NCBI RefSeq assembly: GCF_013122565.1
Contig: NZ_CP053258.1
DNA: 64,000 nucleotides
Source of the DNA: Escherichia coli
Lineage (GTDB): Bacteria; Pseudomonadota; Gammaproteobacteria; Enterobacterales; Enterobacteriaceae
Strand: one strand, 5' to 3'
Part shown: positions 14,648 to 59,010 of the stretch, piece by piece
How the letters are laid out: the number at the start of each line of letters is the position of its first letter
How positions within the stretch are numbered: the first letter of the stretch is position 1
Program-made: the position numbers and the translations under genes
Notes under the pieces: generated by a model
What the model was told of the DNA's origin: nothing
The model's input: the letters and a program-made list of their open reading frames with translations, nothing else
The model's database searches: none

Positions 14648-14958
14648 TATGTATTCCCTTGTGATTATAATCTTCATGAATATATCAATAAGTGCCGTTA
14701 TCCAAAAAAAAGCACATTTGGATACTATTCTATGAAGTTCATTTTATTTTAAGAATTACATGTAACAAATGTATTTAAAAGATTTCAAAATGTTTCCAAT
14801 CTATTTAATATAATTCAGAATTATGAATTCTAAATATAAGCATTCATGAAAATTATAGCTGTATATCAATAATTTATGAGTTAACCGGAAAAATAGGTAT
14901 TGTCAATGATTGTTGCGCCAAACGGCAGGTGTGATCACGCGCACATTAATGAAGACAT

Positions 14959-15050
14959 AAAAAAAAGCCGGCATCATGCCGGCCCAAAAAATATAAACAA
15001 GACGATAAAAGGCTAATAACAGGGTTATCATGACATAGAAATCAAAAAAG
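14959..15050 (-). ncRNA. rseX: Candidate small RNA, possibly RseX
   Basis: Minus-strand terminator: GCCGGC-ATCAT-GCCGGC hairpin (14967..14983) followed by an 8-10 nt U-run. RseX is recalled to lie between yedR and yedS. The 5' end is estimated from the recalled ~91 nt length, not seen. Confidence 0.3.
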
Positions 15051-15213
15051 GTATAATTGTATTCAGTGCTAATATATTGTTTAGGTGAATTAATAAAACC
15101 ATTACCAAAGATATAAATAAATCTTTATTGCTGATTTTCCGGTAATTATTGCAGTTGCGCAAAATTTATCTATTTGTTCAAAAAATGATTGAGTCTTGAC
15201 TGGCTCATCCAAT

Positions 15214-15579
15214 GTGGAAAAATGTGACTTTTATCACATAATAGTACTAAGTCTGAATTTTCCGGGTTATCTCAAAATGGAATACGGTTCGACAAAGATG
15301 GAAGAGAGACTCTCTCGCAGCCCTGGCGGCAAATTGGCTTTGTGGGCTTTCTATACATGGTGTGGCTATTTCGTCTGGGCAATGGCGCGTTACATCTGGG
15401 TGATGAGCCGGATCCCCGATGCCCCGGTGTCGGGATTTGAAAGCGATTTAGGATCTACCGCGGGAAAGTGGTTAGGGGCACTGGTCGGATTTTTATTTAT
15501 GGCTCTGGTCGGGGCATTGTTAGGCAGCATTGCCTGGTACACCCGACCTCGTCCCGCACGTAGCAGACGCTATGAATAA
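15214..15579 (+). CDS. yedR: Inner membrane protein YedR
   Basis: ORF 15196..15579; a GTG at 15214 gives the 121 aa I recall. Alternative ATG starts at 15277 (MEYGSTK) and 15298 (MEERL) lie downstream of the CRP palindrome and may be the true start. Confidence 0.65.
   Translation: MEKCDFYHIIVLSLNFPGYLKMEYGSTKMEERLSRSPGGKLALWAFYTWCGYFVWAMARYIWVMSRIPDAPVSGFESDLGSTAGKWLGALVGFLFMALVGALLGSIAWYTRPRPARSRRYE
15223..15238. promoter_or_regulatory. CRP-type palindrome TGTGA-N6-TCACA
   Basis: TGTGACTTTTATCACA read directly; perfect match to both CRP half-sites. Confidence 0.45.
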
Positions 15580-15618
15580 AAACTGCTAAGGTTGCGACTC
15601 TTTGGCAACGGAGCGCGT

Positions 15619-16314
15619 ATGGACTTACAACACTGGCAGGCAGAGTTCGAAAACTGGTTGAAAAACCATCATCAGCACCAGGACGCGGCCCATGACGTGT
15701 GTCATTTTCGCCGCGTCTGGGCTACGGCACAGAAGCTGGCGGCAGATGATGATGTCGATATGCTGGTGATTTTAACCGCCTGTTATTTTCACGATATTGT
15801 GAGCCTGGCGAAAAATCATCCGCAGCGGCAGCGTTCTTCAATCCTGGCGGCAGAAGAGACGCGTCGCCTGCTCCGTGAAGAGTTCGTGCAATTTCCGGCG
15901 GAGAAAATTGAGGCCGTTTGTCATGCCATTGCCGCTCACAGTTTCAGCGCGCAAATCGCCCCCTTAACCACGGAAGCTAAAATTGTCCAGGATGCGGATC
16001 GGCTGGAAGCCCTGGGGGCGATTGGCCTGGTGCGCGTGTTTGCCGTTTCAGGGGCATTGGGCGTGGCGCTGTTTGATGGCGAAGATCCGTTCGCACAGTA
16101 TCGCCCGCTTGATGATAAACGCTACGCGCTGGATCATTTCCAGACTAAGTTGCTGAAGCTACCGCAAACCATGCAAACCGTAAGAGGCAAGCAGCTGGCG
16201 CAGCACAACGCGCAATTTTTAGTCGAGTTTATGGCGAAGCTCAGTGCCGAACTGGCGGGGGAGAATGAAGGTGTCGATCACAAGGTGATAGATGCGTTTT
16301 CACCCGCGGGCTGA
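15619..16314 (+). CDS. yedJ: HD-domain phosphohydrolase YedJ (231 aa)
   Basis: ORF 15592..16314 contains [22 protein letters not shown]...; start set at ATG 15619. Confidence 0.85.
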
Positions 16315-23272: not shown

Positions 23273-23451
23273 TTACCAGGATGATTCTCAAAACAGCACA
23301 AATTATCAAAGATGATTTTTTCGGGAGCGATCCCGCTGACGCCAGAGCCACCAAGGGGTGACGTGCGTCACATTTCTATTCATAAGTAGCGTTAATCATT
23401 CATATAGCGAATATTTTCTTGTCAGCGAAAAAAATTGCGGATAAGGTGATG

Positions 23452-58051: not shown

Positions 58052-58222
58052 GATAGTGCTCCACAAAGGTTATATTTGTTGCTGTGGCGTCACTATAATT
58101 TGTTATTTTATTATTTGCAAAAGGTAAAATATAAACTTCAATTATTAAAAATACGAATGGGAATAAAACGCATTACCGCTATTTATTTAATCAGCGAAGA
58201 TCCCCCTCGCTGATTAAAACAT

Positions 58223-58546
58223 TTAGAGAAAGACAGGGAAGGCGGAATGATGGCACTGATATGACAAAGTGAATTCCGTATTCAAACATAAGGAACCCGC
58301 AAAGAGGCTACAGTTGCCTACTGGCTGACCAAAGGGGATAGCGTGGGTATAGCCTTCCTGCTGGCATGCGCGATCGGCGATCCCGCGACTGACATAACGA
58401 TCGGTATGGGCATGCTGCAAAAAAGCCTGGTCATAAACCAACCGTACAATACCTGTTGCCGCGTCAACTTCGCTCACATGGGCCTGGCGAGTAACCGTAC
58501 ACCCCGCCAGCGTTATTAATGAAAGAGTCAGAATCAGAAGTCTCAT
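58223..58546 (-). CDS. yecR: Lipoprotein YecR
   Basis: 107-aa ORF MRLLILTLSLITLAGCTVTRQ... (lipobox LAGC). Confidence 0.8.
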   Translation of the reverse strand: MRLLILTLSLITLAGCTVTRQAHVSEVDAATGIVRLVYDQAFLQHAHTDRYVSRGIADRACQQEGYTHAIPFGQPVGNCSLFAGSLCLNTEFTLSYQCHHSAFPVFL

Positions 58547-58711
58547 GGTCCAGCCAGAAGAGTAAGAGAAAGCACTATTTTACGCGTTACAGCGCTGCGA
58601 CAATGGCCGGAAAAGACGCCTGGCAGGCGCTATTTCTTGCCATCTGTAGGTGTCAGAAATAGGGGGGCTGTTTTTTTGATTATCATTTTTATAACATTAA
58701 AGGGGTATTTA

Positions 58712-58727
58712 TGTGATTTGTATCACA
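58712..58727. promoter_or_regulatory. CRP-type palindrome TGTGA-N6-TCACA upstream of azuC
   Basis: TGTGATTTGTATCACA read directly, about 80 bp upstream of the azuC ATG. Confidence 0.45.
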
Positions 58728-58809
58728 TAAAGATTGATTTTTGTGATGGTTGTCATATTATAAGCGCAAAGACAATAACACCTGTATAACAAATGGTCGG
58801 AGTGCCGCG

Positions 58810-58896
58810 ATGAAACTGCGCAAGATCCTGAAAAGTATGTTCAATAACTATTGCAAGACGTTCAAAGACGTACCGCCTGGCAATATGTTCCGATAA
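58810..58896 (+). CDS. azuC: Small protein AzuC (28 aa), encoded on the dual-function AzuCR RNA
   Basis: Hand-translated ATG..TAA: MKLRKILKSMFNNYCKTFKDVPPGNMFR; immediately followed by a terminator. Confidence 0.8.
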   Translation: MKLRKILKSMFNNYCKTFKDVPPGNMFR

Positions 58897-58897
58897 C

Positions 58898-58926
58898 AAA
58901 AAACCTGCTCCGGCAGGTTTTTTTGT
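58898..58926 (+). terminator. Rho-independent terminator of the azuC transcript
   Basis: AAAACCTGC-TCCG-GCAGGTTTTTTTGT hairpin plus U-run directly after the azuC stop. Confidence 0.6.
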
Positions 58927-59010
58927 GTCCTGATGATGGTGGATGTGACTATCGCTGAAGATGTGAAGCCGCTACTATAACGGCTTTCAAAATGCTATCA
59001 GGAGTTTACG

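Follow-up and report, generated by a model that had tools for sequence, protein, structure and literature searches.

The region from 58700 to 58926 of the window, by which we mean the whole 64-kb stretch of Escherichia coli DNA that was analysed, is the already published E. coli azuC/azuR gene (AzuCR, IsrB, IS092; b4663/b4434 in K-12). On its plus strand, an open reading frame (ORF) of 28 codons followed by TAA (58810–58896) was identified by translation, alignment with K-12 and a protein family match. Translation of the frame that opens with ATG at 58810 and closes with TAA at 58894–58896 gives MKLRKILKSMFNNYCKTFKDVPPGNMFR (28 aa), which was 100% identical to AzuC in an alignment with K-12 MG1655 and matched the NCBIfam equivalog NF033642 'stress_AzuC' over model positions 1–26 of 26 with 75.9 bits against a cut-off of 30 (E = 1.3e-21), so the first-pass annotation of this DNA was right to recognize a 28-codon ORF matching AzuC. 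The K-12 azuC/azuR gene is like that of the window in protein, promoter and flanking genes and unlike it at two synonymous positions of the ORF (AAA to AAG, CCA to CCT); the other differences from K-12 were a few substitutions and one single-base indel, all outside the functional elements. A 461-bp stretch with azuC was matched in 5419 of 5426 complete E. coli genomes, and the RefSeq annotation beneath the match reads 'azuC: stress response protein AzuC'. The gene order in RefSeq is ftnA-yecR-azuC-yecJ-ftnB for both E. coli XJ34 and K-12, where azuC sits between yecR and yecJ, and its orthologous position immediately upstream of yecJ was confirmed in both genomes.

It had also been stated that an ORF track would miss azuC for being shorter than 60 aa, which was the case; when the threshold was lowered to 20 aa, the frame appeared as a 48-aa TTG-started ORF (58750–58896) containing AzuC in frame. 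Because the TTG at 58750 lies upstream of the transcript start, the ATG at 58810 was taken as the real start. By direct reading of the plus strand, a Shine-Dalgarno sequence GGAG is found 7 nt before this ATG (58799–58802), and the surrounding CGGAGT was invariant across the aligned Escherichia species.

For the comparison between species, loci were gathered by anchoring on the neighbouring YecJ in a species-representative genome collection, and azuC was then searched for by tblastn. It was found in 58 of 80 yecJ loci, mostly around 110 bp upstream of yecJ, and the resulting comparison set comprised 59 sequences, namely the window and 58 species genomes from 11 named genera: Escherichia, part of Citrobacter, Enterobacter, Lelliottia, Leclercia, Kosakonia, Pseudescherichia, Silvania, Huaxiibacter, Pseudocitrobacter and Pseudenterobacter. 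This presence in 11 named genera of Enterobacteriaceae is wider than the 'limited number of enteric bacteria' of the literature. Upstream of yecJ in Salmonella, C. koseri, the C. freundii group and Buttiauxella, all of which keep yecJ, azuC was not found. The reading frame was unbroken in all 59 sequences, with 27–28 codons, and the mean column information at codon positions 1, 2 and 3 was 1.84, 1.76 and 1.20 bits, respectively, a pattern that fits selection on the protein.

Several variants were seen among these loci. Outside Escherichia, AzuC is usually 27 aa long; a GTG start codon was found in seven loci (six Enterobacter and one Lelliottia), and azuC of Pseudocitrobacter appears to start two codons later. 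Escherichia sp. MOD1-EC7003 carries a clean deletion (L003 1386/1387, equivalent to 58207–58895 of the window) of yecR, the azuC promoter and the ORF up to the stop codon, and keeps the azuC terminator and a 100% identical yecJ.

The AzuCR transcript and its terminator

The AzuCR (AzuR, IsrB, IS092) transcript of 159 nt was placed at 58768–58926 on the plus strand by transfer of the K-12 azuR annotation, in which the ncRNA azuR occupies 1987843–1988001 and the azuC CDS 1987873–1987959, so that azuR starts 42 nt before the ATG and ends 30 nt past the stop codon. The alignment of the window with K-12 contained zero indels in the transcript region. Raina 2022 (PMC8915982) gives the same start, K-12 1988001, yet reports an RNA of 164 nt in which the ORF runs from +40 to +126, whereas RefSeq numbering puts the coding region at +43 to +129 in a 159-nt RNA, a discrepancy of 3–5 nt. 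Because of this inconsistency in start numbering, the distances from the start to the centres of the operators described below may be some 3 bp greater than those given here.

A terminator directly after the AzuC ORF had been proposed in the first-pass annotation, and an intrinsic terminator (58898–58924, plus strand) was indeed supported there by folding and conservation. It begins two bases past the azuC stop codon and consists of an A-tract (58898–58903), a stem-loop CCTGC-TCCG-GCAGG with a 5-bp GC-rich stem and a 4-nt loop (58904–58917), and seven T residues (58918–58924), read as seven U in the RNA. The 41-nt terminator stretch folded at -18 kcal/mol (z = -6.05), and none of 200 shuffled sequences folded equally well, while the fold of the whole RNA was unremarkable (z = -1.47). 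A hairpin and a T-run follow the stop codon in 59 of 59 sequences, with about 12 extra bases in between in three of them. The azuC terminator was not listed by a scan with a consensus terminator; our guess is that the A and T runs perhaps pair, lengthening the stem and consuming the T-run. The locus has the features of a gene for a dual-function RNA: a promoter of its own, a transcript start some 40 nt ahead of the ATG and, immediately past the stop codon, an intrinsic terminator.

A scan of Rfam 15 returned no family matching the AzuCR RNA as a whole and only weak matches driven by the terminator, and Rfam appears to be without a model for this RNA. One of the weak matches was to STnc370 (58892–58956, minus strand, 34 bits against a threshold of 54), to which the terminator hairpin was the main contributor. 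STnc370 is an enterobacterial sRNA family, and a match was sought at two syntenic Salmonella loci and six other loci with none seen; being driven by the terminator and missing from the syntenic Salmonella loci despite the enterobacterial distribution of the family, the match was judged to be due to chance. The same holds for a far sub-threshold match to rsmX (23 bits against 56), in which the terminator hairpin was again the best aligned part.

Two observations concern the opposite strand. With its A-run, hairpin and T-run, the azuC terminator is symmetric, and a promoter-like site on the minus strand, CTGATA-16-TATAGT (58974–59001), lies inside the yecJ leader and faces it. In a sigma-S run-off study from 2011, a transcript antisense to azuC was noted, which carries the annotation c2317 in CFT073.

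Two CRP-type operators in the azuCR promoter

A promoter scan of the plus strand identified a -35 hexamer TTGATT (58734–58739, -34 to -29) and a -10 hexamer TATTAT (58756–58761, -12 to -7), which are separated by a 16-bp spacer, with the -10 hexamer ending seven bases before the mapped start. Upstream of these, the first-pass annotation had noticed a perfect TGTGA-N6-TCACA about 80 bp before azuC, which is found at 58712–58727, 82 nt before the ATG. This palindrome, TGTGATTTGTATCACA, hereafter operator 1, matches all 10 half-site bases of the CRP regulon consensus, has its centre at -48.5 (spanning -56 to -41) and abuts the -35 hexamer. A second CRP-type site, operator 2 (TGTGATGGTTGTCATA, 58742–58757), was absent from that annotation; found as a one-mismatch match with 9 of 10 half-site bases, it is centred at -18.5 (-26 to -11) and fills the promoter spacer and reaches two bases into the -10 hexamer, which makes it the more obviously repressive element of the two. 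Neither site was assigned to a strand, and the two are exactly 30 bp apart. From the palindrome through the ATG, the window and K-12 MG1655 were identical and free of indels, so that the promoter is the same base for base.

Perfect TGTGA-N6-TCACA sites occur twice in the 64-kb window against an expected 0.07, and this excess, together with conservation, rules out a chance origin of the palindrome. A full-text literature search with the two operator sequences gave no match, and the palindrome is not among the novel sites with a Kd below 10 nM tabulated in a Footprint-seq preprint from 2026, an absence that says little, as it may count as known or bind more weakly.

The two operators were then followed through the 59 sequences. 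Operator 2 was present in all of them. Operator 1 was kept with at least 8 of 10 half-site bases in 58, in each of which it starts exactly 30 bp upstream of operator 2, and in the one remaining locus (L081) its core columns are still kept at the 30-bp offset. The G, T, G, A and T, C, C columns of operator 1 were invariant (2.0 bits) around a central spacer of 0.2–0.5 bits, and the TGTGA and TCATA columns of operator 2 had 1.7–2.0 bits around a central spacer of 0.1–0.7 bits. As for the core promoter, TTG of the -35 hexamer was invariant and its ATT kept in at least 92% of the sequences, and each column of the -10 hexamer was kept in at least 93%, while most of the upstream flank was poorly conserved across genera (0.1–0.7 bits). 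Within E. coli, polymorphism of the promoter was likewise concentrated in the N6 of operator 1, which reads TTTGTA, TTCACA, TTTACA, TATGTG or TTTGCA. Fixed half-sites, free spacers and fixed phasing are the trace that a pair of dimeric operators would leave.

A further element lies just upstream of the palindrome. The sequence GATTATCATTTTTATAACATTAAAGGGGTATTTA (58678–58711) is near-invariant in Escherichia including E. albertii, but not across genera, and holds a NarP heptamer (TACCCCT, minus strand) and part of a PhoP motif, both proposed in 2025.

Regulation of azuCR by CRP and a possible role of FNR

The sign of CRP control at azuCR is known from published genetics. Raina 2022 (PMC8915982, citing Hemm 2010) reports that AzuC-SPA rises in a delta-crp mutant, that the RNA is plentiful in no condition other than exponential growth on glucose, and that both AzuC-SPA and the RNA are high on glucose and low on glycerol or galactose. 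The same paper draws two 'Predicted CRP binding sites' in the promoter, from which its authors inferred CRP-mediated repression of transcription, and describes base-pairing of AzuCR with the cadA and galE mRNAs and binding of AzuC to GlpD; the bioRxiv version of that paper and a review (PMC12612679) likewise describe CRP-mediated repression of azuCR. A comparison with published AzuCR regulation, as advised in the first-pass annotation, already answers its question: cAMP-CRP represses. Its suggestion of direct cAMP-CRP control of a dual-function RNA holds insofar as control by CRP is published and the half-site and spacer footprint in the 59 sequences supports a direct action, and the sign, which it had left open, is that of repression.

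We estimate a probability of roughly 85% that the locus is an azuCR gene with a sigma-70 promoter and two CRP operators at which transcription is repressed by promoter occlusion when glucose is absent. The sigma-70 promoter (TTGATT/TATTAT) starts an RNA of about 159 nt at around 58768, ending at the terminator around 58926, and this RNA is translated into the 28-aa AzuC. Without glucose, cAMP-CRP most likely would occupy both operators and keep RNA polymerase off the core promoter, which would be occluded by two cAMP-CRP dimers about three helical turns apart; with both operators occupied in this way, azuCR RNA would be made mainly in growth on glucose. We infer that CRP occupies both operators and that these act through promoter occlusion, and the same applies to a possible cooperativity of the dimers. 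The positions of the operators are consistent with repression, as operator 2 overlaps the -10 hexamer and operator 1 abuts the -35 hexamer. The gene, its RNA, its protein partner, its targets and its repression by CRP are all published, and the observation is correct and ordinary; the small additions made here are the conservation of the 30-bp two-operator architecture in many more genera than the literature implies and the discriminator bases of the palindrome, which are invariably of the CRP type.

These discriminator bases are relevant to FNR, to which the palindrome has recently been reassigned. CRP sites (GTGA...TCAC) and FNR sites (TTGA...TCAA) are discriminated by two positions. Ekdahl 2025 (PMC12266141) placed FNR motifs at K-12 1988039–55 and 1988042–58, a PhoP motif at 1988046–63 and NarP motifs at 1988060–76, with support from promoter mutants and knockout strains, and reported that occupancy changes were 'not at those [CRP] sites, but further upstream', the annotated CRP sites being closer to the start. 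The FNR motifs map to 58711–58730 of the window, and that at K-12 1988042–1988058 is the perfect palindrome itself. The palindrome could accordingly be mainly or additionally an FNR operator for an anaerobic shut-off of azuCR, with CRP then acting only through the promoter-proximal site or sites. This reading draws on the derepression seen in the motif mutant and in the FNR knockout strain as well as on an earlier FNR ChIP-seq signal near the promoter, cited in the same paper, and the core GTGAT-N4-ATCAC does share 8 of 10 bases with TTGAT-N4-ATCAA. However, G and C stand at the discriminator positions 58713 and 58726 in 59 of 59 sequences, and never the T and A of an FNR operator, the 'FNR motif' mutation also wrecks the CRP palindrome, and the assays were made in stationary phase in glucose medium, when cAMP-CRP would probably be active. 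The NarP/PhoP motif region, for its part, is conserved within Escherichia but not across genera. Taking both sides together, we consider an FNR operator at the palindrome unlikely, but serious enough to be kept in view.

Given that G and C are invariant at 58713 and 58726, the palindrome appears to evolve as a CRP operator. We tentatively propose, at somewhat less than even odds and from the evolutionary record of the sequences, that the palindrome assigned to FNR in 2025 is a CRP operator working in tandem with the -18.5 site at a fixed distance of 30 bp. If this is true, the derepression in the 'FNR-site' mutant would at least partly reflect lost CRP repression, and azuCR would serve as an exceptionally clean natural model for repression through a pair of CRP dimers. 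FNR may still bind the palindrome, and the CRP and FNR readings are mutually compatible.

Two other roles for the palindrome are much harder to sustain than repression of azuCR by CRP. CRP activates transcription from -41.5 and -61.5, and -48.5 lies between these positions. The first-pass annotation had made its proposal depend on the palindrome lying where CRP can act relative to the start; a centre of -48.5 is not a classical activating position, and the operator positions fit repression instead. A perfect-consensus site upstream of a promoter is, to be sure, what is found at many activated promoters, and CRP at the palindrome might then be a class I or class II activator of azuCR. Published genetics are nevertheless opposite in sign, with AzuC rising in delta-crp (PMC8915982), and the centre remains between the productive positions at about -51.5 on the numbering of that paper as well. 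A class II arrangement would moreover need a -10 hexamer at around 58749–58754, which reads GTTGTC and has its first three columns among the least conserved. Because of its position and the published sign of regulation, we rejected class I or class II activation as very improbable.

Service of the palindrome to the divergent yecR promoter rather than to azuC seems equally far-fetched: transcription is divergent, the yecR ATG is 173.5 bp from the palindrome centre and a TGnTATAAA-like stretch is present at around 58688–58696 on the minus strand, but of the 58 species loci with azuC only 13 were found to have yecR nearby (two of them at a distance of about 1 kb) and conservation across genera is poor in the columns upstream of the palindrome, so that this role was rejected because most genera keeping the palindrome, which is retained in all 58 azuC loci, were not found to have yecR nearby.

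Related RNAs and other sites in the window

Among known systems, SgrS/SgrT of E. coli is like AzuCR in being a dual-function RNA in carbon metabolism (PMC8915982, PMC12612679), but is activated by SgrR whereas AzuCR is repressed by CRP, and its coding and base-pairing regions are separate whereas those of AzuCR overlap (PMC8915982). Spot 42 (spf/SpfP) of E. coli is, according to PMC8916003 and PMC12612679, a small RNA that, like AzuCR, is repressed by CRP, codes for a very small protein and has a role in carbon metabolism; its sequence, protein and targets are unrelated to those of AzuCR, and it is not in this window. VcdRP of Vibrio cholerae differs from AzuCR in being a 306-nt RNA of another genus, the VcdRP protein of which acts on citrate synthase and not on GlpD.

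In the yecR-azuC intergenic region, a GC-rich hairpin, CGCCTGGCAGGCG (58617–58629), was found 70–83 nt upstream of the yecR start codon. It was flagged as terminator-like on the plus strand; on the minus strand, it might be part of the yecR leader instead.

Apart from the palindrome, the window has one more perfect TGTGA-N6-TCACA, TGTGACTTTTATCACA (15223–15238), which is located some 60 bp upstream of drpB (yedR), in an intergenic region adjoining a porin pseudogene. The Footprint-seq preprint from 2026 lists TGTGACTTTTATCACA as a novel high-affinity CRP site with a Kd of ∼1.9 nM at K-12 2033477, '(yedR)'. CRP-like sites with one mismatch were also seen at 14930–14945 (TGTGATCACGCGCACA) and 23357–23372 (GGTGACGTGCGTCACA), and these resemble the CRP ChIP-seq targets CGTGATCTCGCGCACA (yedR) and GGTGACGCGCGTCACA (yedP) of ETEC H10407. 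Divergence of the window from other E. coli genomes was uneven between the two regions: the azuC stretch (58550–59010) had 95–99% identity to most complete E. coli genomes and 99.3% to the best, and the drpB/yedJ stretch (14700–15800) had 90–95% identity to most complete E. coli genomes and 98.3% to the matches listed.
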